Virus record (IMG/VR): IMGVR_UViG_3300025896_000022
Length of the DNA: 64,000 nt
Strand: one strand, 5' to 3'
Source: a virus
Lineage: Duplodnaviria; Heunggongvirae; Uroviricota; Caudoviricetes
The notes beneath the pieces are model-generated. The model was not told the origin of the DNA. It worked only from the letters and a program-made list of their open reading frames with translations, and searched no databases. The stretch's first letter is position 1; every line of letters begins with the position of its first letter. Positions 1,447 through 43,294 of the stretch are shown piece by piece. The translations under genes and the position numbers were made by a program.

Positions 1447-1774
1447 TACTTTTTACAATTGATATTAACTTAATTAAACATTCAAGTTCTGCTTCTTCGT
1501 AGGTTTTGAAATTGCCTTTTGAAATATTTGATTGATGTAAACCATTTATATGGTATGTAGATATATTTCCACCATAACTATACTCTGTCATTATACAAGA
1601 GAATATTTTATACTTCTCTCTAAACCATCTGAAAGCTATTGCATTATAACCACTTCTTTCAACAGAATCAATTGGTTGAGCATCTAATATTATAGGTGTA
1701 AAACCACTACCAAAACCTTTTTCTTTTAACCATTCAAAGAATCCTAAAGATTCTAATTCATTATATATTTTCAT
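1439..1774 (-). CDS. hypothetical protein. Its N-terminal 'ELESLGF' motif recurs in ORF 2467..2790.
   Basis: 111-aa ORF. The 'YNELESLGFFEW' segment resembles 'YEQALALKELGFDE' in the 2467..2790 product. Confidence 0.4.
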   Translation of the reverse strand: MKIYNELESLGFFEWLKEKGFGSGFTPIILDAQPIDSVERSGYNAIAFRWFREKYKIFSCIMTEYSYGGNISTYHINGLHQSNISKGNFKTYEEAELECLIKLISIVKSNE

Positions 1775-2549
1775 TTGTTATGTATTTAAAAGTGAATCCA
1801 CCACATTGTTTTTGTTTTTCTTTACAGCATCTAATAATGCCTGATTTACTTATGTTAAGTTGTTTTGATGCAGTACAAATTGAATCAAATTCTTGTATAA
1901 ATGTGTTATCTAAATTATATTGTTGAATAGGTTTACCTATTTGCCCTACATGACCAAAATGAGATTGTAGTTTGTCATAACTCCATAAGTATCCTCCAGC
2001 AGATTTAGAAAAACCTCTTTTTTTAATAGAATGTCCAATAGATGATGAATGTATTCCTGTCTGTCTTTCTGCTTCTCTCAATGATATATATTCTTGTAAA
2101 AATACACCGTCTTTTGAGTATTGATAAACTTTTTTCATAGTAGATTGACAAGTTTTAGTAGTACCTTTAGTTTTACTACCAATTAATTTTTTTGTTTCAT
2201 CACTTAATGTACCTGATTTATCTAAAGTTGTTGTCATCTTGCAATTAAGTCCAGATTTACTAAGTACGTTATAGTATTCTTGCCAGTATCTTTCTCTTTC
2301 ATTTAACAAACTTTCTTTACATTCTTCAACTATAATGAAGTCATGTAGGTCAATACCATACTTATTAAATGAAGCTTTTAATCTAACTTGAGATGAACCT
2401 CCTTTAGGTTCAAAATAAGTTAATATTCTTCTTCTAATATCATTAGATTGACCTATATAAACTCTGTTATTTGGACTTGTTATTTTGTAGATTCCACAAA
2501 TCTTTACATCCTTTCTCAATTTTTCTAATTCTTTCTTCATGAGTATCAC
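1761..2549 (-). CDS. GIY-YIG family homing endonuclease
   Basis: The N-terminus 'GIYKITSPNNRVYIGQSNDIRRRILTYF' is a canonical GIY…YIG…R motif. The 262-aa size with a basic DNA-binding tail fits freestanding Seg/I-TevI-like enzymes. It overlaps the upstream ORF by 83 nt. Confidence 0.7.
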   Translation of the reverse strand: MILMKKELEKLRKDVKICGIYKITSPNNRVYIGQSNDIRRRILTYFEPKGGSSQVRLKASFNKYGIDLHDFIIVEECKESLLNERERYWQEYYNVLSKSGLNCKMTTTLDKSGTLSDETKKLIGSKTKGTTKTCQSTMKKVYQYSKDGVFLQEYISLREAERQTGIHSSSIGHSIKKRGFSKSAGGYLWSYDKLQSHFGHVGQIGKPIQQYNLDNTFIQEFDSICTASKQLNISKSGIIRCCKEKQKQCGGFTFKYITNENI

Positions 2550-3176: not shown

Positions 3177-3425
3177 TTATTGAATATTTTCTTCATAATT
3201 TGTTTGATTCTTTCCAGATCCAGATGTTTGAGTTGTAATTGTTTCACCTCTTGATGTAAAATAGTGGTATTTTGCATTGTCTTCAAAACGATACATTTTT
3301 ATACCATCTTTTTCAAATAAAAAGTCTACTTCAACTTGATTACCTTCAGTACTTGAAGATACTGCTACTTTTTTACAACTTGTCATACCTAATAGTATTA
3401 TTACTATTAATAATAGTTTTTTCAT
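3177..3425 (-). CDS. small lipoprotein
   Basis: MKKLLLIVIILLGMTSCKK is a signal peptide with a lipobox-like LGMTSC. Confidence 0.45.
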   Translation of the reverse strand: MKKLLLIVIILLGMTSCKKVAVSSSTEGNQVEVDFLFEKDGIKMYRFEDNAKYHYFTSRGETITTQTSGSGKNQTNYEENIQ

Positions 3426-3450: not shown

Positions 3451-3762
3451 TTAGCACCTATGATAATGTTGAATGTTTTCTTTTCTAGTTAACCATTCTA
3501 GATTAATATAGTCGTTATTAGATTTTACTTTATCAATATGATTGACAGTTTCTTTATTGTAAGGATTTGCAACAAAATACTTTGCTACTAATCTATGTAT
3601 TTTTACTTTAGTAACTTTACCATTTGTAGAAATATTACAATAATTATATCCTCTTGCGTTGACATTTTGTTTAAGAATTTGCTTTTTACTATTCTTAAAC
3701 CTTCCTAAACTTGAAATAAAGTAATTAGGGTTCTCTATAAGTTGTTTCCATTGTTCTTTCAT
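3451..3762 (-). CDS. HNH homing endonuclease (NUMOD4 + HNH_3-like)
   Basis: 'NYFISSLGRFKN' is a NUMOD4-like motif. 'HRLVAKYFV…NHIDKVKSNNDYINLEWLTRKEN' is an HNH motif. Confidence 0.7.
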   Translation of the reverse strand: MKEQWKQLIENPNYFISSLGRFKNSKKQILKQNVNARGYNYCNISTNGKVTKVKIHRLVAKYFVANPYNKETVNHIDKVKSNNDYINLEWLTRKENIQHYHRC

Positions 3763-3790
3763 TTACCAAAGATATTAAATTAGCACTCAA

Positions 3791-3818
3791 CTACCAAATT
3801 ATATTTCAAATTTGGTAG
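3791..3818. promoter_or_regulatory. Perfect 10-bp inverted repeat (CTACCAAATT-8 nt-AATTTGGTAG) at the start of a ~520-nt ORF-poor non-coding region
   Basis: Read directly from the sequence. It lies about 30 nt upstream of the HNH gene start on the minus strand. Confidence 0.4.
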
Positions 3819-4433
3819 AAGAATACTAAAAAGCTGCACCCTCTTTTTTACAATTAATATTCAAGCAAGGTTTAAAGCCTTGTGTAAAAGAGTAGGGTCA
3901 CGTAGTTAATATGACGTTTGTTGATTACTACCAATTAAAGTGTAACACAACGGTTCTTTAACTACTTGCTGAGAATCATTACGTGAGTAGTATATCAATT
4001 TAATACTCTTAATATTTATTGCTTTCTCAAGGCAACTCACGTTCATACATTTCTGTATGTATCTTTATGTAAATAACAACTTCATAGATGCTACGTTAAC
4101 TGTAGAGAAGTTTAATCATCATTTTTATTTACAAAGCATCAATGTTTAGGCTATTTTTTACCAACCTTGGTCTTTCAGGGTTACTGGTTTGCTGACTTTA
4201 CTATTAACCCTTTTTCAAACCATCAACCTAACAGCGAGCATTGGTAATTTTTTAAAGAATAGTTTTTTCTATGTTTTTCAACTCATATTTTTGAATTGAT
4301 TGCAACACAAAAGTTTTCTTTCTTTCTTTGTCACATAGTCTTGCTGCTTCTGCTTCAGCTTCTTCTAAAGTTTCCCATTTCTTAGATGGCGAATTCATAC
4401 CTTCTACATGAACCATATAAAACTTTTCCATAA

Positions 4434-5282
4434 TTATCTATTTAATAAAATATTAGAACTTGAACCAAAAACATTATTAGAACCATAAGGAGATACACCT
4501 CTATTTGCCCATACTCTTTCTGTTTCTGCTTTATATAATTCTAGTAACTTAGGTTGAGATAATATTTCTTTTGTCTTAGCATCAAATATTGCTGCTTCAT
4601 AATTACCTTTTGCTAATGCAACTTTTTTCAATGCAGTTTGTTCAGCTTGTTTAGTTTGAGATATAATAGTTGCTGTTTCTTGTAGTACTGCAATCTTTCT
4701 TTCAATAGCTGCTTTATATGATTTAGGTAATTGCATTTTAAGAATTGCAATATTATTTAATGTAAATCCTTCTTTTTCTAATGCTATTGTTAAAGTTTTA
4801 CTTACTTCTGATTCGTATATGTTTCTATGTTGTAACAAACTATCTGATGCAAATCCTACAGCATTATCTAATAACTCTTTTCTGACAATAGTTCTAACTC
4901 TTGAATTAATTAAATCTTCCATATCAACTCTATATTTTATAAATAAATCAGCTGCTCTTGCTCTTTGCAACTGTAAGTTAATAGATACATCTAATCCAAA
5001 TGTAGCTCCATCTGCAGATGTTACATCAATATGTTCATCTGTTGGAGAATCTTCACTATCATCTGCTGTCCAAACTTTATGTTGAACTGATGTTGGATAC
5101 ATAAATACATCCTGTGTTGGTGGGAAATAAAAGATAAATCCACTTGCCATTTCAATATTTGGAACACCTTTATCATTTCCAATTTGATCTACTACTAATG
5201 CAACTTCACTTGAATCAGCTGTTGTACATGATGTTACAATCATTGATAAAACTACTCCTAATAACCATAATGATTTTTTCAT
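4434..5282 (-). CDS. SPFH/band-7 (prohibitin/HflC-like) domain lipoprotein
   Basis: It has a signal peptide plus lipobox (VLSMIVTSC). The C-terminal half has an SPFH-like pattern (…EKEGFTLNNIAILKMQLPKSYKAAIERKIAVLQE…QAEQTALKKVALAKGNYEAA…). Confidence 0.5.
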   Translation of the reverse strand: MKKSLWLLGVVLSMIVTSCTTADSSEVALVVDQIGNDKGVPNIEMASGFIFYFPPTQDVFMYPTSVQHKVWTADDSEDSPTDEHIDVTSADGATFGLDVSINLQLQRARAADLFIKYRVDMEDLINSRVRTIVRKELLDNAVGFASDSLLQHRNIYESEVSKTLTIALEKEGFTLNNIAILKMQLPKSYKAAIERKIAVLQETATIISQTKQAEQTALKKVALAKGNYEAAIFDAKTKEILSQPKLLELYKAETERVWANRGVSPYGSNNVFGSSSNILLNR

Positions 5283-5285
5283 AAT

Positions 5286-5519
5286 CTAATTTTTGTTTAA
5301 TTTGTTTTTAATAATTTTTATTATTTGTTTAAATATCAACATATTCCAAAAAGATGCTGAAAAAATTGTCAAAAGTAGTGATGCTAAACCCATCACAAAG
5401 GCAAATGTAGATGGTTTACTCATTAAATGCAAACTTAACACAACCATTCCTATTGTAGAAATGGCTATGATAAATAAGCAAACTAATAGTAACCAAATAT
5501 TGTTTAATAATTTAGTCAT
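5286..5519 (-). CDS. small integral membrane protein with two predicted TM helices. It may be an NfeD/YqiJ-like partner of the SPFH protein.
   Basis: 77 aa and strongly hydrophobic. It is immediately downstream of the SPFH gene, separated from it by 4 nt. Confidence 0.4.
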   Translation of the reverse strand: MTKLLNNIWLLLVCLFIIAISTIGMVVLSLHLMSKPSTFAFVMGLASLLLTIFSASFWNMLIFKQIIKIIKNKLNKN

Positions 5520-7372
5520 TATATGATCATTTTTTCTTTGATTAATTTATCTACTTTTTTAGATACATATGAAATCATATCATTTGGTAGATTTTCTATG
5601 TTTGTCATTTTAATAAAATAATCAAACATCTCTTCTGAAGGTACTTCTTCATCAATTGCAATTTGAATTACTTGAAATCCTAATGCTTGTGCCATAGTAA
5701 CCTTTTTTCTGGTGTCATTGATAGCAGCTTGACCATTATATCCACTTGCTGCTGGTTGACCATCAGAAATAACAAATAATAATCCTGGATCAGGTGTTTT
5801 ATTTCTAACACGTTTAGCAACAGCATAAATTGCATCGCCATCTCTATTGTAACTTCTTGCTCTTGCAGAACCTAATGCATATGGATCCATGTTTGTTCCT
5901 GGTTCACGATAAATTCTAATAGTACAATCTTGACTTTTTTCATCTGCAGTATGACCATAAATATACAATTGAACATCAGGTTGCTTTTTAAATACTTCAT
6001 TGATGAAAATTGCTGCTTGACGTGCTTTTGGCATTCTTTCACCACAACCCATAGAACCTGATTCATCAATCAATACAGTTATATTAACTTTATTAGTTGT
6101 TACTTGACCAAATCTTTCATAAATAGTTGGCACTCTTTGAATTGCTTCTGCAAGTTTATTAGTATCTAGTCTACCTGAACGCATGGATTTCATAGAAAAC
6201 TGATAATCTTTTGCTTTACGTGAAAATAACTTAGCAAGAACTTGAGCTTTTGTACTATTAATTTTTGTTAAATCTTTTAGATATTTGTTTTTATCAGTTT
6301 CAGATTTTACAAAATAAACTTTACCATCAAATGATTCACCAGTTTTACTAAAATTATGACTTGAAGCCATTGCTCTTTTTTCTTTCATGTCGTCAGTAAA
6401 ATCATCAAAATCATCTTGAAAATCATCTGAATTATCACCATCAGGTGCATTCATCATTCCTTCCATCATTTTTGATGCTAAATCATTCATGTCAGATTTA
6501 CTTGGTTTAGGTGCTTTTCCACCAGAACCTTCATCTTCATTTTCTTCTTTACCTTCGCCTTCACCATCACCTTTTTCTTCTTCTTTCTTTTCTTCTGCAA
6601 CAATGAATTTATCAATTACACCAGAAAGATATTGAGCTTGTCTTTCACAATCTGCAGATGTAATTGGAAATCCATGTTTTTTCATGTAATTTTCAATCTG
6701 CGAAAGAGGTTTTGCAAACTCTTCTACTTCTTCATCAGTTACATGTGCTGGATACCTAAGAAATTTAGTAATAGTTTCAGTAAGTCTTTTTCCAGCATGT
6801 TCTTCTTCACCAAGTGGTTCATATGTTTTATCATATTTATACTGTTTAAATTTTTGAACAAACTTAGAATAACCTGGAAATCTATCTGCTAATTTTTTGT
6901 CAACTCTTTCAGTATTTAGTATTGAAAACATCAAATCTTTTACTGTTGTAGTAGTAGCACTATTTCGCGCATTCATGGTACGTGAGTATTCGCTTCTTGT
7001 TTGCAAGGTTGCAAGAGCTGCATTTTGAATTGCAGCACCATAAAACGCATCTAAAAGCTCTACATCATGATTCATATATTCACCATCTTCTGAACGTAAC
7101 ATGTTCAAAGGAACTGGAATAGTTGTTTTATCACTTACTGCTCTAAGTTTATTTGAATGATCAAATTTTATATCTTTTGGAACACCAATTACTCTAAACA
7201 TAGAACCAATCATTTTGGCTGCGGATCTTAAGTTTTGATTATCTCTTACAAAATAAGAAGAGTAACCTGTTCTACCAGAATCCCAATCAAACAACTTTTT
7301 ACTTGGATCATAAAAAGAATAAGCATCTTCTTCTTTTCTTTTCCACCAGTCTTTTTTAAATTTTATACTCAT
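5519..7372 (-). CDS. cobT: von Willebrand factor A (vWA) domain protein, CobT-like
   Basis: The C-terminal 'VLIDESGSMGCGERMPKARQAAIFINEVF…VISDGQP' is a vWA MIDAS (DxSGS) motif. It has an acidic low-complexity linker and is 617 aa. It sits next to a MoxR/CobS-like AAA+ gene. Confidence 0.55.
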   Translation of the reverse strand: MSIKFKKDWWKRKEEDAYSFYDPSKKLFDWDSGRTGYSSYFVRDNQNLRSAAKMIGSMFRVIGVPKDIKFDHSNKLRAVSDKTTIPVPLNMLRSEDGEYMNHDVELLDAFYGAAIQNAALATLQTRSEYSRTMNARNSATTTTVKDLMFSILNTERVDKKLADRFPGYSKFVQKFKQYKYDKTYEPLGEEEHAGKRLTETITKFLRYPAHVTDEEVEEFAKPLSQIENYMKKHGFPITSADCERQAQYLSGVIDKFIVAEEKKEEEKGDGEGEGKEENEDEGSGGKAPKPSKSDMNDLASKMMEGMMNAPDGDNSDDFQDDFDDFTDDMKEKRAMASSHNFSKTGESFDGKVYFVKSETDKNKYLKDLTKINSTKAQVLAKLFSRKAKDYQFSMKSMRSGRLDTNKLAEAIQRVPTIYERFGQVTTNKVNITVLIDESGSMGCGERMPKARQAAIFINEVFKKQPDVQLYIYGHTADEKSQDCTIRIYREPGTNMDPYALGSARARSYNRDGDAIYAVAKRVRNKTPDPGLLFVISDGQPAASGYNGQAAINDTRKKVTMAQALGFQVIQIAIDEEVPSEEMFDYFIKMTNIENLPNDMISYVSKKVDKLIKEKMII

Positions 7373-7378
7373 GACTTT

Positions 7379-7600
7379 TTATTTTTTATTAAATTCTAAA
7401 ATTATTACATGTGGATTTAATTCTTTAAAAAGTTTTAATTGCTGATTAAGTGGAGAATTTTCATTTTCTAAATTTTCAACATGTAATCGAACACTTTCAA
7501 CTAAATTTCCAATTGTATCATATTTGACAATTTCTTTTTCAATACCATGTATCATGGCTTGCCACATTTGTTTACTTGGTAAACTTCGTTCTTTTTCCAT
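7379..7600 (-). CDS. hypothetical protein
   Basis: 73-aa ORF. Confidence 0.3.
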   Translation of the reverse strand: MEKERSLPSKQMWQAMIHGIEKEIVKYDTIGNLVESVRLHVENLENENSPLNQQLKLFKELNPHVIILEFNKK

Positions 7601-7757
7601 GTTCTTTTTCTATTAAACTTTTCTTTTTTGCACGAAACTCACCCCAATCATTGTTATGACGATTCCACATGTTATATACATTTTCAGGAATATCTTTAAG
7701 TGCAATTAATCCTTGTTTGAATTTTGCAACAATTGTATGTTTATAAGTTTTACCCAT
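7572..7757 (-). CDS. hypothetical basic protein
   Basis: 61-aa ORF. Confidence 0.3.
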   Translation of the reverse strand: MGKTYKHTIVAKFKQGLIALKDIPENVYNMWNRHNNDWGEFRAKKKSLIEKEHGKRTKFTK

Positions 7758-7831
7758 ATTTTTGTAATTTTATGTATGATAAATCCAACACTAACTGTTA
7801 AATTCTGTATTACGGTATGCTATATATAACA

Positions 7832-8455
7832 TTATCGTACTCTTATTTTTTGTTTTTTATTAATCGTTACTGATTGATTTTTTGAAAATGAAATTGCAAG
7901 TTTTATAACTTTTTGCAAAAGTGTTGTTTGCAAAGATTCACCATTTTCAATTAAACTTAAAGTTGAACGATTGATATTTAAATAATCACATAATTGTGAT
8001 TGAGTTAATTTGTAAGACCACCTTACACTTTTGAAAAAATGTGGTAAATCATTAAGAAAATGATCCATATTTTCCAAAAATTCAGTTTTTAATTCAAAAA
8101 ATAAAATTGATTTTGCTTCTTTCATTAGTGCAACATTGAATAAATTTTGATTTATTGCAGTAAATTCAGATATCCAAAACAACTCTTTATTTGAAAGTTG
8201 ATCTAACAAAATATCTTTTTCAAGTATTTCAACTTTTGGTGATAACTGAAGAATTCTTAGTTCTTCAACCCATTTTCTTACATGTTCATTATGCGAGTAA
8301 TGCACGTGTTTTATAGGTCTTTCAACACCAATTGTTGTTTTACCAACATAAACTCCCAAGTCATTTCTTGGATCTTTTAAAACATAAATAAGATTTGTTG
8401 TTTCCATAGTAGTATCTCTTTTTAATAAGATACTAAATAATGTTGGAAAAAACAA
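7832..8455 (-). CDS. GIY-YIG-like nuclease domain protein with a C-terminal XRE-type HTH
   Basis: The N-terminus 'IYVLKDPRNDLGVYVGKTT…R' is GIY-YIG-like. The C-terminus 'LTQSQLCDYLNINRSTLSLIENGE' is HTH_XRE-like. Confidence 0.4.
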   Translation of the reverse strand: MFFPTLFSILLKRDTTMETTNLIYVLKDPRNDLGVYVGKTTIGVERPIKHVHYSHNEHVRKWVEELRILQLSPKVEILEKDILLDQLSNKELFWISEFTAINQNLFNVALMKEAKSILFFELKTEFLENMDHFLNDLPHFFKSVRWSYKLTQSQLCDYLNINRSTLSLIENGESLQTTLLQKVIKLAISFSKNQSVTINKKQKIRVR

Positions 8456-8505
8456 ACAAAATAGCTATTAGTGAAGGATATATCATACAAGATTGCTTGA
8501 TCCTA

Positions 8506-9780
8506 TTAAAACGCAGCAATAATTGATAATACTTTACTACGTTCAGAAGTACCAATACCATCTTCAAAAAGAGGCATAATAACACTTTGAATTGCGCTAG
8601 TAAGTTCAAAACCATCTACAATTAATCCAGCAGTTTGTAAAGTATGTCTTACTGAAACTGGAGTAGATAATTCTTGGTCTTTATATTGTTTTCTAATTTC
8701 ATTAGAAACTTTAACAATAGCAGATGCAGATTTTTCATCAACACCTGTACGAATTTTTAAGATGTTAATTTCATCTTCTTCTTGAGGATATCCTAATTCA
8801 ATAGGAAAAAATCTATCTAACAATGCTCTATCTATAGCGTTAGTACCAGAGTACTCAGAACCTAGATTAGCAGTTGCAAAAAATACAGTTTCTGGATTTA
8901 CTTGAACTTGACGATCACATTCTTCACAAGCGACATCTACAGGTAAATATCTTCTGTTATCTAAACAAGGAAACAAGATATTATTTGCAGCTAAAGGTGC
9001 TCTGTTTAACTCGTCAAGAAGTACAATGCCTCCAGATTTAATGTGTCCAACAAAAGGTGCAAATTCAAATTCTGAATGACCTAATTTACCAATTCTGTGA
9101 ACGCCTAGTAATGCTGATTGAGCATCTTGAACAGTACCCATATCTTGTATGTACAATGGTTTTGCCATTGCTTTTGCAAGGTGATTTAACAATTCTGTTT
9201 TACCTGAACCTGTAGGTCCCATAAGTAAAGTATTTTCACCTCTCAACACATTTCTCACAAGTAAGTACCAGATATCTGGTTCAATGTGAAAACCACAATC
9301 TTCCTTGGTAGGCACTGGATAATTTGCAGAAATTGTACGCTTTAAATTAGTTCCTGCAGGAAGTGCTTCACCAGCAGCAGGTAATGCAAATTTTGCATCC
9401 CAATCAAATTTGTAACCATAAGGTTCATATTTAGTTGCCATTTCTTTTGCTTTTTCCACACCAAATTCTGAATGATCAATCATATAATCAATCAAAAAGT
9501 CTACAAGTGGAATACGTGATGGATCACTAATAGGAAATACATCATTCATGTAATACATTGCTGTAATACCTTCTTTACGAATATGTAAGTGATCTGATTC
9601 AGGAAAATCATAACCATCTGCACAGAATACTGTACCTAATGGAAATTTTACAATGTCAGCAATAGGTGCTGTTATTTTAATATCTTTTACGTTGATAGGT
9701 AAACTTTTTTCAAAAGATTGACCTGCTAATGTTTCAACTTCAAAAGATGTACCGTTTAATAATGCTCTAAATAGGATCAT
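8506..9780 (-). CDS. cobS: AAA+ ATPase of the MoxR / CobS-like family
   Basis: Walker A is 'LLMGPTGSGKTELLNHLA'. Walker B / sensor is 'IVLLDELNRAPLAANNILFPCLD' followed by 'FFATANLG'. This is an AAA_5-type arrangement, and it sits next to a vWA protein. Confidence 0.65.
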   Translation of the reverse strand: MILFRALLNGTSFEVETLAGQSFEKSLPINVKDIKITAPIADIVKFPLGTVFCADGYDFPESDHLHIRKEGITAMYYMNDVFPISDPSRIPLVDFLIDYMIDHSEFGVEKAKEMATKYEPYGYKFDWDAKFALPAAGEALPAGTNLKRTISANYPVPTKEDCGFHIEPDIWYLLVRNVLRGENTLLMGPTGSGKTELLNHLAKAMAKPLYIQDMGTVQDAQSALLGVHRIGKLGHSEFEFAPFVGHIKSGGIVLLDELNRAPLAANNILFPCLDNRRYLPVDVACEECDRQVQVNPETVFFATANLGSEYSGTNAIDRALLDRFFPIELGYPQEEDEINILKIRTGVDEKSASAIVKVSNEIRKQYKDQELSTPVSVRHTLQTAGLIVDGFELTSAIQSVIMPLFEDGIGTSERSKVLSIIAAF

Positions 9781-9804: not shown

Positions 9805-10380
9805 TTACTTTAATGTGGACATAAAACCTCCACAGGTTTCTAAAAAAGAATGAAATCTTTTTAAATCGTCAAGTTTTAAACTGCATTCTGGATGATATTC
9901 GACTACTCCTTTACCTATAACAGGTAACATCACAAAAAAAGTAGGTGTTAATGTGTTTAATTCTTCAATCAGATCATTATTGCTGATTGGATTGTTGTCA
10001 AATGTATACCAATTACCAGTTTTCATATATATTCTGTCGTAATTATACGCTTCTAAGAAATTTATATGTCTTGATAAATGTTTTGCTAGTTCTTCACAGT
10101 CATCAGCATTTTCAACTCCTTTAGATACATCACCTAAATCAAGTTTTTTAATAACTTGAATTTGATTAAGTAATGTTACAAGTAATTTCCAATCTGATTC
10201 TGGTAAAGTAATGCTAGCTCCAGGTAATGTATTTACATAATTATGCATTAATTGCATGTAATCACCTAAATGTTCTGATGAACAATTTTCTGGTATTTCA
10301 GGTAATACAAAATCACCTGTCATTGGATGTAATCCTATTAAATCTACTGACATATATTTAATATTTAAAAAAGGTAACAC
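9805..10380 (-). CDS. hypothetical protein
   Basis: 191-aa ORF. Confidence 0.4.
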   Translation of the reverse strand: MLPFLNIKYMSVDLIGLHPMTGDFVLPEIPENCSSEHLGDYMQLMHNYVNTLPGASITLPESDWKLLVTLLNQIQVIKKLDLGDVSKGVENADDCEELAKHLSRHINFLEAYNYDRIYMKTGNWYTFDNNPISNNDLIEELNTLTPTFFVMLPVIGKGVVEYHPECSLKLDDLKRFHSFLETCGGFMSTLK

Positions 10381-10426
10381 AGATTCGCTATAAAAAACAT
10401 TTGAATCTATGTTACCTTGTTATGTA

Positions 10427-10972
10427 TTATGCAAGACCTCCTTTAAAATCACTAATGTTGAATCCTGATTCATCATTATTATCATCATCTGAATCTAAAT
10501 TACTGAAAGGATTTCGCATTTTTCTGATTTCTTTTTTTAGTGCTTCAAGTTTATCTTCATCTTTGCTATTAACAGCATCATCCATTCTTTTTTTAAAATC
10601 TCTGATTTGTTCTGCAACTGCTGTTGGTAAATTATCAACCATTTTATCAAATTGATCATTTGTTAGTTTTTTTGGTACTTTTTTTGACATTCTTGAAGGT
10701 TTTGTAATACTTTTTATAATGTTTTTTTTAATACCTTGTAACTGATCAATTAAAACATCTACCATACCAATTATTTCCATTGGTTTACCTGTTGACATTG
10801 TTAAAGAAGATTCAGGAAATCCATTTTCATCTTGAGATGCTCCAATAATCAAATGACTATTGTAATCTTCAGAATTGTTTTTAATATTTACTTGAATTTT
10901 TCTCATTTCATTTACTACACACTTTTTTTCTTGATTTTTCATTTTAATTTGTATTTGGTTATTTAAATTCAC
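10427..10972 (-). CDS. hypothetical protein with an acidic C-terminus
   Basis: 181-aa ORF. Confidence 0.4.
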   Translation of the reverse strand: MNLNNQIQIKMKNQEKKCVVNEMRKIQVNIKNNSEDYNSHLIIGASQDENGFPESSLTMSTGKPMEIIGMVDVLIDQLQGIKKNIIKSITKPSRMSKKVPKKLTNDQFDKMVDNLPTAVAEQIRDFKKRMDDAVNSKDEDKLEALKKEIRKMRNPFSNLDSDDDNNDESGFNISDFKGGLA

Positions 10973-11276
10973 TAATTAGATTCTTCAAAAAATCATCGCA
11001 TTCTTCAATCAATTCTGCAATAGGTTTAAGTTTTACAACTACATCACATAATGTATTATAAAATGCAGTTTCCTTAAACATTTCAACATGCTCAGGTTTA
11101 ACTTCTTTCATTGCTGTTGCAATTCCCATTGGTGTTTCTACTTGTTTGGTTATTACATTTTTATCAAGATTTTTGTTCATTGTTTTTAGATAACTTTCTA
11201 ATCTATAATAAACTAATAATAATTCTTGATTAGTTAAACCTGCATACTTTTCTACTTCTTTTTTCTTTGTAGCCAT
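10959..11276 (-). CDS. hypothetical protein
   Basis: 105-aa ORF. Confidence 0.4.
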   Translation of the reverse strand: MATKKKEVEKYAGLTNQELLLVYYRLESYLKTMNKNLDKNVITKQVETPMGIATAMKEVKPEHVEMFKETAFYNTLCDVVVKLKPIAELIEECDDFLKNLISEFK

Positions 11277-11800
11277 TATAGTTGAATATTTTCAGATGAT
11301 AGTGTGTAAAAATTTCTAGGTAATAATCTTCTTTTAATAAACTCGTCTATTATTTCACGAGTTGTTATACCTAATTTCTTTAAAGTTGCGCTTTTTGGCA
11401 ACTCTAACAACCAATCAAAATCTTTTTCACCTATATTAACGTGAGAAAAAATACTATTTACAAGATTTGTTTCATTCTTGTACAATTTTTTTGCTTTCAT
11501 AACATGCAATGCTCTACTTGCTTTATTGTAATCATTTACAATTCTGCTAATAGATATTGGTGATAATGAAGCAATTTGTTCTGGACTATATTCTGTTAGT
11601 CCATACATTAATCTTCTATACATTTGACGTTGAATCAAATTCAAATGAATTCGATCTTGAGTTTCTTGTATATGTTTTGGTTTGTGTTCTGTTTTTGCTT
11701 GATATGTATCAACATATTTTTGCATAATCACATTGCCATTTTTGTCAATTGCAATTGTTCCTTGAGCAGTTGCAGTGATGGATTTAAATTGTTCCTTCAT
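11276..11800 (-). CDS. hypothetical protein, possibly an HTH-containing transcription regulator or sigma-factor-like protein
   Basis: The C-terminal 'LPKSATLKKLGITTREIIDEFIKRR' resembles an HTH or sigma region 4. This is weak evidence. Confidence 0.3.
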   Translation of the reverse strand: MKEQFKSITATAQGTIAIDKNGNVIMQKYVDTYQAKTEHKPKHIQETQDRIHLNLIQRQMYRRLMYGLTEYSPEQIASLSPISISRIVNDYNKASRALHVMKAKKLYKNETNLVNSIFSHVNIGEKDFDWLLELPKSATLKKLGITTREIIDEFIKRRLLPRNFYTLSSENIQL

Positions 11801-20572: not shown

Positions 20573-20929
20573 GGGGATGACTGGTTTTGACAGGTCATTA
20601 GTAAGTAGTACAATCAGCCAGAGAGATAACTGTAAACTAAGGTGAATTTAATAAATGACAACAAAGTAATTTCGTTAGATGCTGACCAAGTTAGTGCTAA
20701 CATGAGCAAAGTTTTTTCATTAATTAATGCAGATGTCGAAGAGTTAGAAATAGCTGCGTAGTAAGCATCAACAAGATTTATCAGTTCGATTAAACTGATT
20801 GGTGGTTTTGTCTACATTAGTAGATCCCAGAGTGCTCCTGTAGACTCTTTAAATAAGTATGGGTGCAAAAGCTGTATAAATTGTATTATTGACCATGGTT
20901 TGGACAGGGGTTCGACTCCCCTCATCTCC
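20573..20929 (+). ncRNA. ssrA: tmRNA (ssrA-like, one-piece) carried by the phage
   Basis: The 5' end GGGGATGACTGGTTTTGACAGG matches the tmRNA consensus GGGGnUGnnnnGGnUUCGACnGG. The 3' end GGACAGGGGTTCGACTCCCCTCATCTCCA forms a T-arm (AGGGG-TTCGACT-CCCCT). Its acceptor strand CATCTCC pairs 7/7 (one G·U) with the 5' GGGGATG. The internal tag frame ends …GCA GAT GTC GAA GAG TTA GAA ATA GCT GCG TAG TAA (20729-20764), giving the putative tag A-DVEELEIAA. Confidence 0.7.
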
Positions 20930-21019
20930 ACAAGTGTATGTTATTATAGACAATATCTTATCTATTGTCTATAATAACACACATTAATAACTAATATATT
21001 AGTTAAAAACCTAACAACA

Positions 21020-23444: not shown

Positions 23445-23634
23445 TATTATGAAACTAAATAGATTATACAACTGGTTATTTCATTATAACCCACATACAG
23501 AAAATTGGAATGCATTTCATAGAGATGACCAATCTGCATACTGGAATAAAACAGAAAAAACACATCCTGTATTTACAGCAAAAGAATTTAATGAGTTAAT
23601 AAAAATATTACACACCTCAAATTTATGTATATAA
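23425..23634 (+). CDS. hypothetical protein
   Basis: 69-aa ORF overlapping both neighbours. Confidence 0.3.
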   Translation: MLTTKCNIMKLNRLYNWLFHYNPHTENWNAFHRDDQSAYWNKTEKTHPVFTAKEFNELIKILHTSNLCI

Positions 23635-26600
23635 GTGTACCAACTCATGATTGTGAATTAGATTCATGGTCTGTAACAGACTTTGAAACAAGGGAATTGT
23701 TTGTAGAGTTTCTGACAAAAATGTTCAAGGTTCCTGGTACTTATGAATTTGATGAATGTTCTAACAAGTTTAACGAACAAGCACAGTTATTTAATAAAAA
23801 TAATAAAGTATATTGTGTATCACCTTTACGTTCAAAAGATTATGTAACGTATTGGGATGACCAAAAAGCAAAATGTAGATATGGAGTTATATATAAAAGT
23901 AATGGAAAGACTTGGTATTTAACTAGAGAATATTACATGTGGTTAAATTTTTTGCCTATATATGATAAAGAAGAAGCACGATTTGGATTTGCAAAAGTCA
24001 GAGACGCTCAGTATCATATGGCATTATATGAAGAACTTGCTAGACATTCTTATAAGCATGTTGTTATATTAAAGAAACGTCAGATTGCGTCAAGTTATTA
24101 TCATGGTGCAAAAATGATAAATTACTTTTGGTTTGAAGAAGGTTCTATTAGTAAAATGGCAGGTTCACTTAAAGACTATATTAATGAAAAAGGTACTTGG
24201 CGTTTTCTTGAAGAATATAGAAACTTTTTAAATACTTATACAGCATGGTACAGACCATGTACTCCAGATAAAGTACTTAACTGGGAACAAAAAATTGAAA
24301 TTAATCAAGGTGGTAAAAAACGAGATGTTGGTTTAAAATCAGTTATATTTGGATTAGTACTTGATAAAGATCCTACAAATGGTGTAGGTGGACCATGTAC
24401 ATTATTTTTTCATGAAGAAGCAGGTATTGCACCTAAGATGAATATGACAATGGAATACTTGTTGCCTGCAATGAAATCGGGTATGATATATACTGGTCAA
24501 TTTATTGCAGCAGGTTCAGTAGGAGATTTAGCACAATGTGAACCATTGCGTGAAATGTTAATGAATCCAGATGGTAAAGACATTCTTGCTGTTGAAACTA
24601 ATTTGATTAATGATAAAGGTGAGATTGGAATGTGCGGATTATTTATTCCAGAACAATGGTCAATGTTACCTTGTATTGATGAATATGGTAATTCACAAGT
24701 TGAACTTGCATTAGAAATGATTCTTGCAGAAAGAATAGTATGGAAAAAGAAACTTAAACCAGATGATTATCAACTTCGTATTTCTCAGAAACCTATTAAC
24801 ATTGCTGAAGCATTTGCACATAGAACAAGATCTGTATTTCCATTACACTTGGTAACACAACAACTTAGAAGAATTGAAGAAGGAGAATATTATAAAGAAT
24901 TTTTAGATTTAAATCGTGATGAAACTGGTAAAGTAGTTGCTAAAGAATCTAAAAAAATACCAATATCTGAATTTCCATTATCATCAAAAACTGAAGATAA
25001 AGAAGGTGTTTTAGTTGTATGGGAAAGACCACATAAAGATCCAATATTTGGAATGTATTACGCATCTGTCGATCCAGTTGCTGAAGGAAAGGCAGAGCAT
25101 GTTGATAATATGCTCTATACACCAAAAGGTAGAAAAAGAATAGGTGATATTCAAATAGGTGATAAAGTAACTGGTTCTAATGGAGAAGTTATTAATGTGA
25201 TTGGTGTTTACCCACAAGGAGTTAAAAAAATGTGTAAAATAACGTTTAGTGATGGACATAGTATTAAAGTATGTGAAGATCATTTATGGAATGTAAAATT
25301 AAATGGCGGAACAAAAGGATATATTACACTTTCTGTAAAAGATTTATTAAACAATACTAAAACAATTACATATAATGGAACAGGTAGAAATACTAAAAAA
25401 GAATATACAATTTCTACTTATTATAAAGATAAACAAAATAGAAATAAATGGTCAATACCAATAGTTAAACCTATTAGTTTTGATTTTGGTAAAATATTAC
25501 CTGTTAATCCTTATTTACTAGGTTTACTATTAGGTGATGGAGGATTATCTCAAAAATCTATTAGATTTAGTACAGTTGACACTGAGTTAATAAATTCTAT
25601 TGAACACATATTAGAAGATGACTTATTAATAAAAAAAGTTAAAAATTCAAATTGTGATTATACAATTATTACAAAAGTTGGTTCAAGAAATTCATTAACT
25701 AAAAGATTAAAAGAATTAGGTTTAAAAGGTAAAAGGTCCGAAGATAAATTTATACCACAAGAATACCTATATGCATTAGGATCTTGTAGATTATCTTTAT
25801 TACAAGGATTAATGGATACAGATGGTTCTTATTCAAATCATGGAGCAGAATTTTACTCATCATCAAAAAAATTAGCTTATCAAGTTGTTGAATTAGTACA
25901 ATCATTAGGAGGAATAGCAAAAATAAGATGTAAAAAAACAACTCATTTAGATTCTTATATTGTAAGAGTATTATTGCCTGAATATCTTAATCCTTTTATA
26001 CTAAAAAGAAAAAGAGAAATATATAAACCATCAAAAGTATTTAGCAAATACATAACAAATATAGAATACATTAATGACGCAGAAGCAATATGTATATCTG
26101 TTGATGCTCTTGATAATCTTTATGTTACGGAACATGCTATAGTTACACATAACACAACAACATCAGATTCATTATGTTCTATTTATGTATATAAAACATC
26201 TCAAGAAATTACAACACATAAATCTGATGGCACAATTGAATCTAATATTGAACGCGATAAAATTGTAGCTGCATGGTGTGGTAGATTTGATGATTTAAAT
26301 AAAACACATGAAAGACTTGAGTTAATTATTGAATGGTATAATGCGTGGACAATATGTGAAAATAACGTTAGTGCATTTATTCAGCATATGATTGCGCGTA
26401 GAAAACAAAAGTATTTAGTACCAAAAAATCAAATTATGTTTCTTAAAGAAATACAAGCAAACATGAATGTATTTCAAGAATATGGTTGGAAAAATGTTGG
26501 TACTATGTTTAAAGTAAATATTATACCATATGGTAAACAATTTCTTGAAGAAGAATTAGATTATGAAACTAAAACAGATGGTACTATTGTCAAAACTACA

Positions 26601-26888
26601 TATGGTGTAGAAAGAATACCAGACATCATGTTGTTAAAAGAAATGGCAGCATATAGAGATGGATTAAACGTGGATAGGATTATTGCTTTTTGTGCATTAG
26701 TTGCATTTGCAAAAGTGCAAGAATCCAATCGTGGTTACACTAAACGTGTTGAAAGAGAAGATGATAATTTGCAAAAGTCAAATAAAAATGCTAAATTGAG
26801 AGTGAGTCCATTTAGACATATGGGTGGTTCATATTCAATTAATTCATCTATGAGAAAACCTCATAATCCTTTTAAAAACATAAGATAA
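23625..26888 (+). CDS. terL: terminase large subunit (TerL) with an in-frame intein of about 347 aa carrying a LAGLIDADG homing endonuclease
   Basis: It has an ATPase-like N-terminal half and a Walker-B-like 'CTLFFHEEAG'. The nuclease-domain first catalytic motif 'SVDPVAEGK…' is interrupted by an intein. The intein shows a Hint N-block (GRKRIGDIQIGDKVTGSNGEVINV), two LAGLIDADG motifs (LLGLLLGDGGL; LQGLMDTDGSY) and a C-terminal '…VTHN|T' junction. The extein resumes 'TTTSDSLCSIYVY', matching the 'D.sa' part of the terminase nuclease motif. Confidence 0.7.
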   Translation: MYISVPTHDCELDSWSVTDFETRELFVEFLTKMFKVPGTYEFDECSNKFNEQAQLFNKNNKVYCVSPLRSKDYVTYWDDQKAKCRYGVIYKSNGKTWYLTREYYMWLNFLPIYDKEEARFGFAKVRDAQYHMALYEELARHSYKHVVILKKRQIASSYYHGAKMINYFWFEEGSISKMAGSLKDYINEKGTWRFLEEYRNFLNTYTAWYRPCTPDKVLNWEQKIEINQGGKKRDVGLKSVIFGLVLDKDPTNGVGGPCTLFFHEEAGIAPKMNMTMEYLLPAMKSGMIYTGQFIAAGSVGDLAQCEPLREMLMNPDGKDILAVETNLINDKGEIGMCGLFIPEQWSMLPCIDEYGNSQVELALEMILAERIVWKKKLKPDDYQLRISQKPINIAEAFAHRTRSVFPLHLVTQQLRRIEEGEYYKEFLDLNRDETGKVVAKESKKIPISEFPLSSKTEDKEGVLVVWERPHKDPIFGMYYASVDPVAEGKAEHVDNMLYTPKGRKRIGDIQIGDKVTGSNGEVINVIGVYPQGVKKMCKITFSDGHSIKVCEDHLWNVKLNGGTKGYITLSVKDLLNNTKTITYNGTGRNTKKEYTISTYYKDKQNRNKWSIPIVKPISFDFGKILPVNPYLLGLLLGDGGLSQKSIRFSTVDTELINSIEHILEDDLLIKKVKNSNCDYTIITKVGSRNSLTKRLKELGLKGKRSEDKFIPQEYLYALGSCRLSLLQGLMDTDGSYSNHGAEFYSSSKKLAYQVVELVQSLGGIAKIRCKKTTHLDSYIVRVLLPEYLNPFILKRKREIYKPSKVFSKYITNIEYINDAEAICISVDALDNLYVTEHAIVTHNTTTSDSLCSIYVYKTSQEITTHKSDGTIESNIERDKIVAAWCGRFDDLNKTHERLELIIEWYNAWTICENNVSAFIQHMIARRKQKYLVPKNQIMFLKEIQANMNVFQEYGWKNVGTMFKVNIIPYGKQFLEEELDYETKTDGTIVKTTYGVERIPDIMLLKEMAAYRDGLNVDRIIAFCALVAFAKVQESNRGYTKRVEREDDNLQKSNKNAKLRVSPFRHMGGSYSINSSMRKPHNPFKNIR
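25110..26153 (+). mobile_element. intein (Hint domain plus LAGLIDADG endonuclease) within terL. The C-terminal boundary is well defined (His-Asn 26148-26153, then Thr+1). The N-terminal boundary is approximate.
   Basis: See the TerL entry. The residue at the inferred N-terminal junction is not a canonical Cys/Ser, so the exact start may lie a few codons away. Confidence 0.6.
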
Positions 26889-41071: not shown

Positions 41072-43294
41072 ATGTTTCCAAATATTCCATGTACTGATTG
41101 TGATCCATGTCCAACACCAGTTGTACCAGTTCCAATACCAGATTTGTCAGAATTAGTTTGTAGTATTTTCTATGATGACACATGCGTGTTTTATTCTGGG
41201 GAAGATATTCCTTGTGCAGGTATACTAAATGGAATGTTTTTAAATGAAGTATTACAAATATTAAGTAATACTTCATGTACTTATTGTGGTGGCATACCAA
41301 AAGTATTACAACCATTAAAATTAACAAAAGATGTTTGTGGTAGAAAAAGTGATAGTCCATCATATGAACTAGTATATGTATATAGACCAACAGGGGTTTT
41401 TTCTGATGTAATAAGTAATAATGATATAATTTATGAATCAGATAGAATAACAAAATATGTAGGTAATAATTTAATTTATGGCGCAAGAACATTTGATGCA
41501 AGTAGACTTACAATAATAAATATTAATGACAATGGTATTGTAACTTTAAATACAACAATTGCTTCTATAACACCAGCACCTGAATCATCTAATAATGAAT
41601 TTAATACTTGTGTTGATGCAACAGTAAATGATTTAATATTATCTATAATTGGAACTGATATAAAAATTTATGATGATCCTTATTTAGGAAATCCATTACC
41701 ATTAACTGATGTATTAACTGAAACATATTATTTTGCAACACAAACTTTGTATGGTTGTGAAAGTACTTTTACTTGGATTTTAGTTAGTGTTGGTACAGTA
41801 TACCAACCTGAAGCAGATTCACCTCAAACATTTTGTACAAATTCAACAGTGGCAAATTTAGTTGCATATGGTGATAATATTAAATGGTATACAGCATCAA
41901 CAGGTGGTACATTATTAGCAAATACAACTCAACTAGTTTCTGGTGTAACATACTATTGTTCTCAAACTACAGGAACTTGTGAAAGTGAAATAAGAACAGC
42001 AGTTCTTGCAACAATTGGAATACCATCAACTCCTATTGCAGTTAATCAAACATTTTGTTCTGTACCAACGCCAACAATTGCAGACTTAGTAGTGACAGGT
42101 ACAACTGGTACAGTAAAATGGTATACAACTGCAATTGGTGGAACAGCATTATCATCTGGAACTAATTTGATTTCAGGAACTACTTATTATGTATCACAAA
42201 CTATAGGTTCTTGTGAAAGTGCTAAAAAATCAATTTCTATTATAGTAACTACAAAAGTAACACCATTATTTACACAAGTTTCTAATGTATGTTCAGGTGT
42301 AACAATGATTCCATTACCAACTACATCAACAAATGGTATTACAGGAACTTGGTCTCCTGCACTAAATAATACAACAAATACACTATACACGTTTACTCCA
42401 ACTACAGGATTGTGTGCCAATACAACTACAATGACAATAGGAGTTGATACAGTTGCTACTCCAACAGTATCTGCACAAACATTTTGTGGTGGTGGAACTG
42501 TAAGTAATCTTGTTGCAACTGGTACTAATTTAAAATGGTATAATGTTGCAACTGGTGGAACTGCTTTATATAGTTCTGTACCTTTAGTAACAGGTACATA
42601 TTATGTATCTCAAACACTTGGAATTTGTGAAAGTGCAAGAGTATCTTGTGCAGTTACTACATCAAATTTTGTTTTTTCATTAAGAAATGCTGAACATACA
42701 ACATATAGTGATGGAACACCAATACCACAAATAACAAATAATACAGAATGGACAACTGACCCTAGTACTGGATTACCTAGAACAACTGGTGCTTGGTGCT
42801 ATTATAATAATGATCCTGCAAATGGTGCTGTTTATGGCAAACTGTACAATTGGTATGCTGTAGCAGGAATATATAATGCAGCATCACTAGCAAACCCAGT
42901 ATTAAGAAAACAATTTGCACCAAATGGTTATCGTGTTCCAACATTTACGGAGGGATATAATTTTATTAATTGTTTAGGTGGAACATCTGTTGCAGGAGGA
43001 AAGATGAAAGAAGCAGGTACAACACATTGGCAAAGTCCTAACACAGACGCTACAAATAGTAGTGGTTTTACTGGCTTACCTGGAGGTTATCGTAATTACA
43101 ATGGTCCATTTTATAATATTAATTTAAATAATTATTATTTTTTTTCTACAGAAAATGAATTACATGATTCAAATGGAGTAGTAATAGAGATTCAGGGTGC
43201 AGTAATGTATTTAGATTATCGTTATTCAGTAGTAAATTTGTCAGGAGCTCGTAAAAGTAATGGAATGTCAATAAGATTAATCGCAGATATTTAA
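41072..43294 (+). CDS. tail fiber protein with an N-terminal Cys motif, about 4 tandem Ig-like repeats and a C-terminal FISUMP (Fibrobacter succinogenes major paralogous, TIGR02145-like) domain
   Basis: Repeats follow the pattern '(V/I)KWY(T/N)..TGGT.L……L.(S)G.TYY.SQT.G.CES.' The C-terminus 'GAWCYYNNDPANGAVYGKLYNWYAV…GYRVPT…GGKMKEAGTTHWQSPNTDATNSSGFTGLPGGYR' matches the FISUMP consensus. Confidence 0.6.
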   Translation: MFPNIPCTDCDPCPTPVVPVPIPDLSELVCSIFYDDTCVFYSGEDIPCAGILNGMFLNEVLQILSNTSCTYCGGIPKVLQPLKLTKDVCGRKSDSPSYELVYVYRPTGVFSDVISNNDIIYESDRITKYVGNNLIYGARTFDASRLTIININDNGIVTLNTTIASITPAPESSNNEFNTCVDATVNDLILSIIGTDIKIYDDPYLGNPLPLTDVLTETYYFATQTLYGCESTFTWILVSVGTVYQPEADSPQTFCTNSTVANLVAYGDNIKWYTASTGGTLLANTTQLVSGVTYYCSQTTGTCESEIRTAVLATIGIPSTPIAVNQTFCSVPTPTIADLVVTGTTGTVKWYTTAIGGTALSSGTNLISGTTYYVSQTIGSCESAKKSISIIVTTKVTPLFTQVSNVCSGVTMIPLPTTSTNGITGTWSPALNNTTNTLYTFTPTTGLCANTTTMTIGVDTVATPTVSAQTFCGGGTVSNLVATGTNLKWYNVATGGTALYSSVPLVTGTYYVSQTLGICESARVSCAVTTSNFVFSLRNAEHTTYSDGTPIPQITNNTEWTTDPSTGLPRTTGAWCYYNNDPANGAVYGKLYNWYAVAGIYNAASLANPVLRKQFAPNGYRVPTFTEGYNFINCLGGTSVAGGKMKEAGTTHWQSPNTDATNSSGFTGLPGGYRNYNGPFYNINLNNYYFFSTENELHDSNGVVIEIQGAVMYLDYRYSVVNLSGARKSNGMSIRLIADI
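42680..43294 (+). repeat. FISUMP-domain coding segment, copy 1. It has a roughly 70-80% nucleotide-similar paralogue at 51520..52060.
   Basis: Aligned by eye: tggtgcttggtgctattataataatgatcctgcaaatgg… against tggagcatggtgctattataataatgattctgcaaataa…. Confidence 0.5.

Follow-up and report, generated by a model that had tools for sequence, protein, structure and literature searches.

A hairpin–SPFH lipoprotein gene cassette and a MoxR-class ATPase–vWA gene pair are separable neighbors in a tailed-phage genome

When a gene for a membrane-directed SPFH lipoprotein stands a few nucleotides from the genes of an AAA+ ATPase and a vWA-domain protein, do these genes encode one machine, or are they separate units that have come to lie side by side? 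We examined this question in a 64,000-nucleotide stretch of DNA (here called the window) from the IMG/VR virus record IMGVR_UViG_3300025896_000022 (Caudoviricetes). The window is part of a tailed-phage genome with a source contig of 123.3 kb; its GC content is ∼29%, and terminase, portal protein, and major head protein are encoded at 23.6 to 32.7 kb. The left 18 kb holds small genes, on the minus strand throughout. In this arm the order on the minus strand is an AAA_5/CbbQ_C ATPase gene, an inserted helix-turn-helix (HTH) open reading frame (ORF), a vWA gene, a gene for a hairpin mini-protein with two transmembrane (TM) spans, and the SPFH gene (Table 1). A preliminary description made from the sequence alone had read the SPFH, mini-protein, vWA, and ATPase genes as one functional module. 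ORF listing and profile searches confirmed the positions of all four and placed them on the minus strand. However, the comparative data presented below favor a different account, which we consider the likelier overall explanation: two independent units plus a selfish insertion, not one machine. Our confidence in the two-unit architecture itself is high.

To ask how tightly these genes are linked, IMG/VR was searched with each gene as anchor in turn, with a locus defined as the match ±10 kb; the collection scans used short peptide patterns and so favor close relatives. With the vWA gene as anchor, 33 loci were recovered. The ATPase gene lay directly upstream in 33/33, together with a block of four genes (p174–p105–p181–p191) that accompanies the pair throughout this phage family. 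The AAA+/vWA pair named in the preliminary description is real, with MoxR-class and CobT-like members. An SPFH gene was present in 11 of the 31 vWA loci that had enough downstream sequence, each time in the same slot and with a two-TM hairpin before it. In the other 20 testable loci, other small genes come straight after vWA. Five contigs without the cassette are 120 to 124 kb long, a range that includes the length of the source contig, and none of them appeared in either SPFH-anchored scan. The pair also extends beyond this family: in the distant Bacteroides phage BS162P1 and the gut contig MT835482, the ATPase and vWA genes are adjacent and lie beside DNA polymerase and RecA genes, and neither genome has an SPFH gene.

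The converse situation was also observed. The hairpin–SPFH cassette comes in two types that are ∼30% identical, type A in the window and in its nearest relative (L003) and type B in three other clades, and its presence is patchy over a simple neighbor-joining tree of vWA proteins. A type-A SPFH anchor retrieved 36 further viral contigs of up to 322 kb at 75 to 90% identity, and a type-B anchor retrieved 44 further contigs at 67 to 82% identity. No ATPase or vWA gene was found within 10 kb of SPFH in ∼35 type-A and 44 type-B contigs (∼80 in total). Apart from the cassette, the type-A loci have almost no gene in common with the window; neighbors in the ten contexts examined included ERF, YqaJ and PDDEXK nucleases, DUF932, HAD, a PolB-like exonuclease, and an AAA protein. 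Pairwise identities also cross phage lineages. An unrelated 162-kb contig has an SPFH protein 95% identical to that of L003, and the type-B protein of another family member (L006) is 82% identical to one from an unrelated contig, versus 75% to that of family member L009. Vertical inheritance of type B within the family, the divergence of which tracks vWA divergence, was considered and is weakened by these closer copies in unrelated contigs. The pair is thus found without the cassette and the cassette without the pair; the units are separable, and the cassette is exchanged horizontally. These counts do not support the four-gene functional module. The co-occurrence check that the preliminary description had suggested, of SPFH with the CobST-like pair in related phages, gave a mixed outcome that leans against linkage, with the presence of the cassette in the same slot in four clades speaking for it.

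The identity of the SPFH protein was clear from profile searches. The preliminary description had named a Band_7 (PF01145) match as the test of its SPFH assignment, and the match was found well above cutoff (61.1 bits versus 23.6), with residues 22 to 214 spanning profile positions 3 to 171 of 176. The protein also matches PHROG 200, labeled "lipoprotein," at E=9.6e-37. Its N terminus (MKKSLWLLGVVLSMIVTS, then C) is a signal peptide with the lipobox VTSC and Cys19. This cysteine is invariant in alignments of 22 close and 10 distant homologues, including those of phage phiE125, cr126_1, the P1-like element, and Kayvirus MbpS; lipoprotein status and TM spans were judged from hydropathy and motif inspection. 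Because the protein is lipid anchored, its SPFH domain is placed outside the cytoplasm, as in HflK/C and the prohibitins. The best solved relatives are prohibitin-2 and prohibitin-1, at low identity (E ∼1e-3 over residues 100 to 281), and a search of NCBIfam gave no HflK or HflC match. A long, putatively helical C-terminal region follows the SPFH domain, with a helix at residues 187 to 260 in an AlphaFold2 model of low confidence (22 close homologues as input; predicted local distance difference test score [pLDDT] 51; predicted template modeling score [pTM] 0.34).

Homologues of this protein fall in 363 to 563 protein clusters and carry the JGI annotation "regulator of protease activity HflC," and PHROG 200 matches 369 records of the cultured-phage collection. 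When a homologue search was seeded with a mixed alignment of type-A, type-B, and named-phage proteins, all 120 matches listed were type A. Type-A SPFH is very abundant in viral and metagenomic data and was found in none of 185,579 species-representative bacterial and archaeal genomes scanned with two peptide patterns. Relatives of type B are present in Bacteroidota genomes, some of them on contigs of 300 to 900 kb.

We then considered the mini-protein. Both genes lie on the minus strand, so the hairpin is upstream of SPFH in transcription; the preliminary description had placed the mini-protein after SPFH with a 4-nucleotide (nt) gap, and although the order is reversed and the gap is 3 nt, the tight adjacency that it noted stands. 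The spacing of the adjoining genes is as close: the vWA stop and hairpin start codons overlap by 1 nt (TAATG), and 2 nt separate SPFH from the next ORF (p59). The 77-amino-acid (aa) hairpin protein had no Pfam, NCBIfam, or PHROG match. Its loop, LMSKPST, is short and uncharged, with a family consensus of roughly L-M/L-N-x-x-S/N-T/S, and members of the family have 57 to 95 aa, two TM spans, and a basic C-terminal tail. The hairpin lies directly upstream of SPFH in 12/12 SPFH-bearing loci of the phage family and in 31 of the 34 testable type-A loci. A hidden Markov model (HMM) of the hairpin, trained on type-A contexts only and searched against 4,835 six-frame ORFs (87 other loci, 1.36 Mb), gave 50 matches at E<=0.01; all 50 were directly upstream of an SPFH gene and none was elsewhere. 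The hairpin is a genuine, conserved partner of phage SPFH lipoproteins.

This partnership extends to named phages and to bacterial genomes. The same arrangement and loop motif recur in Burkholderia phage phiE125 (gp44–gp43), in the crAss-like phage cr126_1 (gp043–gp042), and in the P1-like element MH445381, where the hairpin is an unannotated 78-aa ORF. Bacteroidota genomes with hairpin–SPFH include those of Parafilimonas, Ilyomonas limi, and Alistipes. The hairpins have no Pfam or NCBIfam match; they are divided among several small PHROGs of unknown function (1130, 32105, 11110, and others), which are not treated as a single family. A third small membrane protein (∼117 to 124 aa; one TM span, near the N terminus) is a frequent companion of the cassette: it is encoded between hairpin and SPFH in about ten loci (L038, L039, L042 to L044, L047, L048, L053, L055, and L056) and directly downstream of SPFH in L041 and L067. 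The two N-terminal TM spans of the SPFH protein of Flavobacterium phage FL-1 were considered as a fused hairpin; they did not match the hairpin HMM, and the argument was dropped.

The layout had been likened to that of bacterial stomatin–NfeD operons. This resemblance holds for the tight, conserved, operon-like arrangement but not for the identity of the mini-protein. No match to the NfeD profile (PF01957) was obtained, and the 77-aa protein is too small for an oligonucleotide/oligosaccharide-binding (OB) fold, which is absent: only a 19-aa tail remains beyond the two TM spans. In SPFH–NfeD operons (Pyrococcus PH1510–PH1511, Escherichia coli YqiJ–YqiK and QmcA–YbbJ, Bacillus subtilis YuaF–FloT), a small membrane-protein gene likewise lies tightly upstream, and these operons are likewise inherited and transferred as a unit. 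In contrast, the partner here is a bare hairpin with no OB-fold, and the SPFH protein is a lipoprotein. NfeD partners have been described for SPFH1, SPFH2, and SPFH5 only, and none for the periplasm-facing SPFH3 and SPFH4 (PMC2636767). The HflK/HflC–FtsH and prohibitin cages (SPFH3 and SPFH4) share with the window protein an SPFH domain with long C-terminal helices, predicted in the window protein, on the extracytoplasmic side of an energy-transducing membrane. Relative to HflK/HflC, however, the cassette has one SPFH gene instead of a K/C pair and a lipid anchor instead of an N-terminal TM helix, and no FtsH-like gene adjoins it in the window. In one unrelated type-A contig, hairpin–SPFH is directly preceded by a gene (L068:8653-9699) whose 348-aa product combines a TM segment at the N terminus with a classical AAA domain (PF00004, E=8.5e-13), a single case that recalls FtsH with HflK/C.

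Several previously annotated phage SPFH genes belong to the same family, namely Kayvirus MbpS, phiE125 gp43, cr126_1 gp042, orf75 of CSP3 (Burkholderia), and PM0222 of a Pasteurella prophage. The staphylococcal Kayvirus MbpV–MbpS genes form a related pair, but MbpV has one TM span, not two. Phage SPFH genes have been treated as morons, as possible HflC mimics, and as possible secretion helpers, with no function assigned (PMC10269572, PMC7150955, PMC9872710). In the literature we found no paper giving these SPFH genes a phage function and none describing the hairpin partner.

How might the cassette work? In our reading, hairpin–SPFH is an accessory, horizontally mobile two-gene cassette. It lies immediately 3' of the conserved block, where a plastic accessory region begins, and its co-transcription with vWA would be due only to this position. 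Since the hairpin termini are basic, an N-in/C-in topology is suggested, which would place the short conserved loop in the periplasm. The exported SPFH lipoprotein would oligomerize on the periplasmic side of the inner membrane into a cage like those of the prohibitins or HflK/C, with the hairpin as its membrane-embedded partner, and this cage would fence off a patch of membrane early in infection. Conservation of the SPFH protein among unrelated phages is very high, and the cassette lies among early and recombination genes in both temperate and virulent phages; for these reasons we infer that the cassette acts on a conserved feature of the host envelope. Its purpose is most likely membrane protection or the blocking of a superinfecting phage, which is our leading guess, and modulation of a host membrane protease such as FtsH or timing of lysis would be alternatives. 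As a mechanism, cage and exclusion together remain tentative. A search with PADLOC defense models gave no match for SPFH, hairpin, vWA, or p59 and only weak, generic P-loop matches for the ATPase.

Several points weigh against this account. In four clades of the family, a cassette of one type or the other fills exactly the position behind vWA, with overlapping stop and start codons; this recurrence could mean that co-expression is selected for, and not simply that the site is permissive. With loci of ±10 kb and a bias toward close relatives, a distant ATPase–vWA pair could lie elsewhere in the large SPFH-bearing contigs. The hairpin was not detected in 3 of the 34 type-A loci or in several type-B loci. 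Cage formation is argued from family analogy, the AlphaFold2 model being of low confidence as given above. Finally, the lipoprotein may lie in the inner or in the outer membrane; the SPFH protein of the Pasteurella prophage has been reported in outer-membrane vesicles (PMC9872710).

Lysis control is an unlikely alternative for the cassette, although it is the best placed of those that we considered. The hairpin would be a class II holin-like protein or an antiholin, and the SPFH lipoprotein would organize or time its assembly in the membrane. The size range, two TM spans, and charged C-terminal tail of the hairpins are indeed holin-like, MbpV and MbpS of Kayvirus are encoded between the endolysin gene lysK and tgl, with MbpV called holin-like by the authors (PMC7150955), and a peptidoglycan hydrolase gene lies two genes downstream in cr126_1. 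However, no endolysin gene adjoins the cassette in the window or in the ten type-A contexts examined, where the neighbors are instead recombination and replication genes (ERF, YqaJ, and PDDEXK), and close relatives that lack the cassette must still lyse their hosts.

We consider it improbable that the ATPase, vWA, hairpin, and SPFH proteins form a single device, in which a cytoplasmic MoxR–vWA chaperone would assemble, load, or remodel the SPFH scaffold via the cytoplasmic tails of the hairpin. In addition to the separate occurrence of pair and cassette described above, neither a signal peptide nor a TM segment is present in the MoxR and vWA proteins, but the SPFH domain is exported. There is almost no overlap between the two gene sets among named phages, with SPFH mostly in Staphylococcus and Burkholderia phages and the ATPase mostly in cyanophages, and we found no MoxR–SPFH link in the literature. 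The packing of vWA, hairpin, SPFH, and p59, which suggests a single transcript, speaks for such a device, as does the occupation of the slot after vWA by two different cassette types. Promoter scans gave numbers of sites not above chance (44 sigma-70-type sites versus 53.9 expected; 13 Bacteroidota-type sites versus 8.4 expected), and the transcription units are therefore deduced from gene spacing only.

The other unit, the ATPase–vWA pair, proved to be of mixed affinity. The ATPase consists of an uncharacterized N-terminal domain of ∼170 aa, an AAA_5 domain (65.1 bits, E=8.9e-18), and a CbbQ_C lid (36.2 bits, E=7e-9), and its Walker A (GPTGSGKT) and Walker B (LLDE) motifs are both intact. Searched against the Protein Data Bank (PDB), its family profile scored 198 bits with midasin, 88 with NorQ, 73 with CbbQ, and 40.8 with CobS. 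In NCBIfam, a GvpN match fell below threshold and no CobS model was matched at E<=0.01; Pfam gave no CobS_N match at E<=0.1. By profile score, the ATPase is thus nearer to midasin, NorQ, and CbbQ than to CobS; of the MoxR/CobS-type label in the preliminary description, the AAA_5 and MoxR class is retained, and CobS is not the closest match.

The vWA protein had been described as a 617-aa protein with a MIDAS motif, and both its size and its motif were verified: the residues DESGS...SDG are invariant across 34 family members. An N-terminal domain and an acidic linker precede the C-terminal vWA domain. The window protein falls below the Pfam thresholds for VWA (22.1 bits; cutoff, 23.8) and CobT_C (17.2 bits; cutoff, 21), and the homologues L001 and L002 exceed the latter (30.7 and 43.8 bits). 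Against the PDB, the best match of the family profile was CobT (9uka_G, E=3.4e-7), including the acidic linker and a GxLD motif before the vWA domain, and NorD also matched (E=1.5e-4). There was no match to the Pfam CobT N-terminal family or to an NCBIfam CobT model, and Pfam searches with the N-terminal domains of the vWA protein and the ATPase matched no family. By these comparisons, then, the ATPase is nearest midasin/NorQ/CbbQ and the vWA protein nearest CobT. In the two gut Bacteroides-phage relatives (L001:5554-7410 and L002:5956-7755), the vWA N-terminal domain (around residues 110 to 160 of the window protein) includes an intact HExxH (HEGCH) followed by EDERIE; the same positions across the window's family (32 sequences) read IQNAA and LNTERID. 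This domain may be an inactivated metallopeptidase-like fold.

In NorQ/NorD, CbbQ/CbbO, CobS/CobT, and viral "cobST," a gene for an AAA_5+CbbQ_C ATPase adjoins a vWA gene, as it does here, and the ∼620-aa window protein shares the architecture of CobT and NorD (N-terminal domain, acidic linker, and MIDAS-containing vWA). In contrast to these systems, the window ATPase has an extra N-terminal domain. In our reading, the ATPase and vWA genes form a vertically inherited core unit, split in the window genome by the insertion described below. By analogy with NorQ/NorD, CbbQ/CbbO, and CobS/CobT, it is most likely cytoplasmic. A hexamer of the ATPase would grip the vWA protein as an adaptor and then remodel a target protein or load metal into it, and the pair probably remodels some cytoplasmic target. 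Viral cobST clusters have been noted earlier and proposed to hijack host CobN (PMC8651126). That the window pair is likewise a viral cobaltochelatase, an auxiliary metabolic CobS/CobT pair boosting cobalamin synthesis, would fit the PHROG labels CobS ("porphyrin biosynthesis") and CobT and the CobT match of the vWA profile, but it is doubtful in view of the ATPase scores and extra domain, the missing CobS and CobT family matches, the lack of any CobN family match among the large window ORFs scanned, and the setting of the pair among DNA polymerase and RecA genes in gut-phage relatives. We caution against annotating the ATPase–vWA pair of the window as cobalamin-biosynthesis genes.

The third component of the locus is the insertion between the ATPase and vWA genes. 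In the nearest relative, L003, the ATPase is 94% and the vWA protein 89% identical to those of the window, and the ORF of this ∼0.69-kb insertion is missing from all 33 relatives (tblastn and L003 alignment). It is the only ORF that the insertion carries (8407..7832 from ATG, 191 aa; 8455 from an upstream TTG). The preliminary description had called it a GIY-YIG-like/HTH insert. The insertion is real, and the C terminus of the ORF does hold an XRE-type HTH (HTH_3, 25.4 bits; cutoff, 23). The GIY-YIG part did not hold up: Pfam gave no match to PF01541 at E<=0.1, BLASTP against the genuine GIY-YIG gene of the window gave E=0.5, and phmmer against the PDB returned HTH regulators only. The GIY-YIG-like "IYVL...YVGKT" at the N terminus is visible by eye only and unsupported by searches. 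A second small indel relative to L003 created p73, which is specific to the window genome. Elsewhere in the early arm, free-standing ORFs of homing-endonuclease type were observed at 1761-2549 (minus strand; GIY-YIG+NUMOD1) and 3451-3762 (minus strand; HNH_3/NUMOD4), both assigned by precomputed Pfam matches on the source contig, and the inserted HTH ORF (7832-8455, minus strand) was counted as the third of this kind.

Table 1. Features of the hairpin–SPFH and ATPase–vWA locus in the 64-kb window
Feature	Coordinates	Strand	Evidence
Upstream block p174–p105–p181–p191	9805..11800	-	Same-order tblastn matches in nearly all of L003–L035
MoxR-class AAA+ ATPase, 424 aa	8506..9780	-	AAA_5, CbbQ_C, PHROG 249
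Genome-specific insertion, ∼0.69 kb	roughly 7801..8487	-	Alignment with nearest relative L003
p61, small ORF	7572..7757	-	78% identity match in L003 only among relatives; no family match
p73, small ORF	7379..7600	-	No tblastn match in any relative; gap in L003
CobT-like vWA protein, 617 aa	5519..7372	-	PHROG 17276 CobT, PHROG 1576
Two-TM hairpin mini-protein, 77 aa	5286..5519	-	Two hydrophobic spans, Lys-rich C-terminal tail
SPFH/Band-7 lipoprotein, 282 aa, type A	4434..5282	-	Pfam Band_7 E=1.9e-16; PHROG 200
p59, small ORF 2 nt downstream of SPFH	4252..4431	-	PHROG 28324 E=6.9e-5

The genes flanking the locus were also surveyed. The proteins of the p174–p105–p181–p191 block had no Pfam or NCBIfam match. 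Copies of p59 that are 92% identical were found in L003 and L070 only, so that this ORF accompanies the cassette in that lineage only. Between p59 and the HNH gene, a stretch of ∼490 bp (3763-4251) has no long ORF and one 46-aa ORF (3906-4046), and no Rfam family matched it at the gathering threshold. A DNA search of cultured phages gave no result.

Other features of the window were noted in passing. A full-length tmRNA gene at 20573-20933 (plus strand; Rfam RF00023, 85.2 bits; gathering score, 47; E=1.3e-31) was also called by ARAGORN, with the predicted tag peptide ADQVSANMSKVFSLINADVEELEIAA, and sits where the minus-strand early arm switches to the plus-strand late arm. In a 1,087-aa ORF at 23625-26888 (plus strand), two separate stretches (residues 59 to 489 and 487 to 845) match terminase large-subunit PHROGs, and the second also matches DNA primase and DnaC-like P-loop PHROGs; such a length is unusual in a terminase, and the ORF may be the product of a fusion or insertion. 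Large late proteins encoded at 41072-43294 and 47105-52060 (both plus strand) have Ig_7 (CHU_C-associated) and Fib_succ_major domains, and a small lipoprotein at 3177-3425 (minus strand) matches DUF4884. These Ig_7/Fib_succ_major proteins and the DUF4884 lipoprotein, together with relatives of type-B SPFH in metagenome-assembled genomes of Bacteroidia, Chitinophagales, and Cytophagaceae, indicate a Bacteroidota host.

Phage SPFH genes are common, as the cultured-phage records and the hundreds of clusters in the wider protein collection attest, and the SPFH gene of the window is of a known kind; its partner is newly defined. What is new is that SPFH and a specific hairpin partner together make up the functional unit, a two-gene cassette, that this cassette is swapped among otherwise unrelated phages at 75 to 95% protein identity, and that it is independent of the neighboring ATPase–vWA pair. 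The tempting hypothesis of a MoxR–SPFH machine is thereby removed as unsupported. For experimenters, the cassette offers a defined construct of ∼1.1 kb, with phiE125, P1-like plasmid-prophages, and crAss-like phages as tractable systems. A bolder and less secure possibility is that hairpin–SPFH represents an undescribed, autonomous membrane device of phages, a horizontally spread, periplasm-facing cage with a non-NfeD partner. A weaker variant would have the MoxR–vWA pair cooperate with the cassette in the one family where they are co-transcribed. If the bolder possibility is correct, phages of Gram-negative hosts would deploy the cassette from prophages or at an early stage of infection, either to keep out superinfecting phages or to counter envelope-acting host defenses, and its carriers would include freshwater Bacteroidota phages, crAss-like phages, Burkholderia phages, and P1-like elements.

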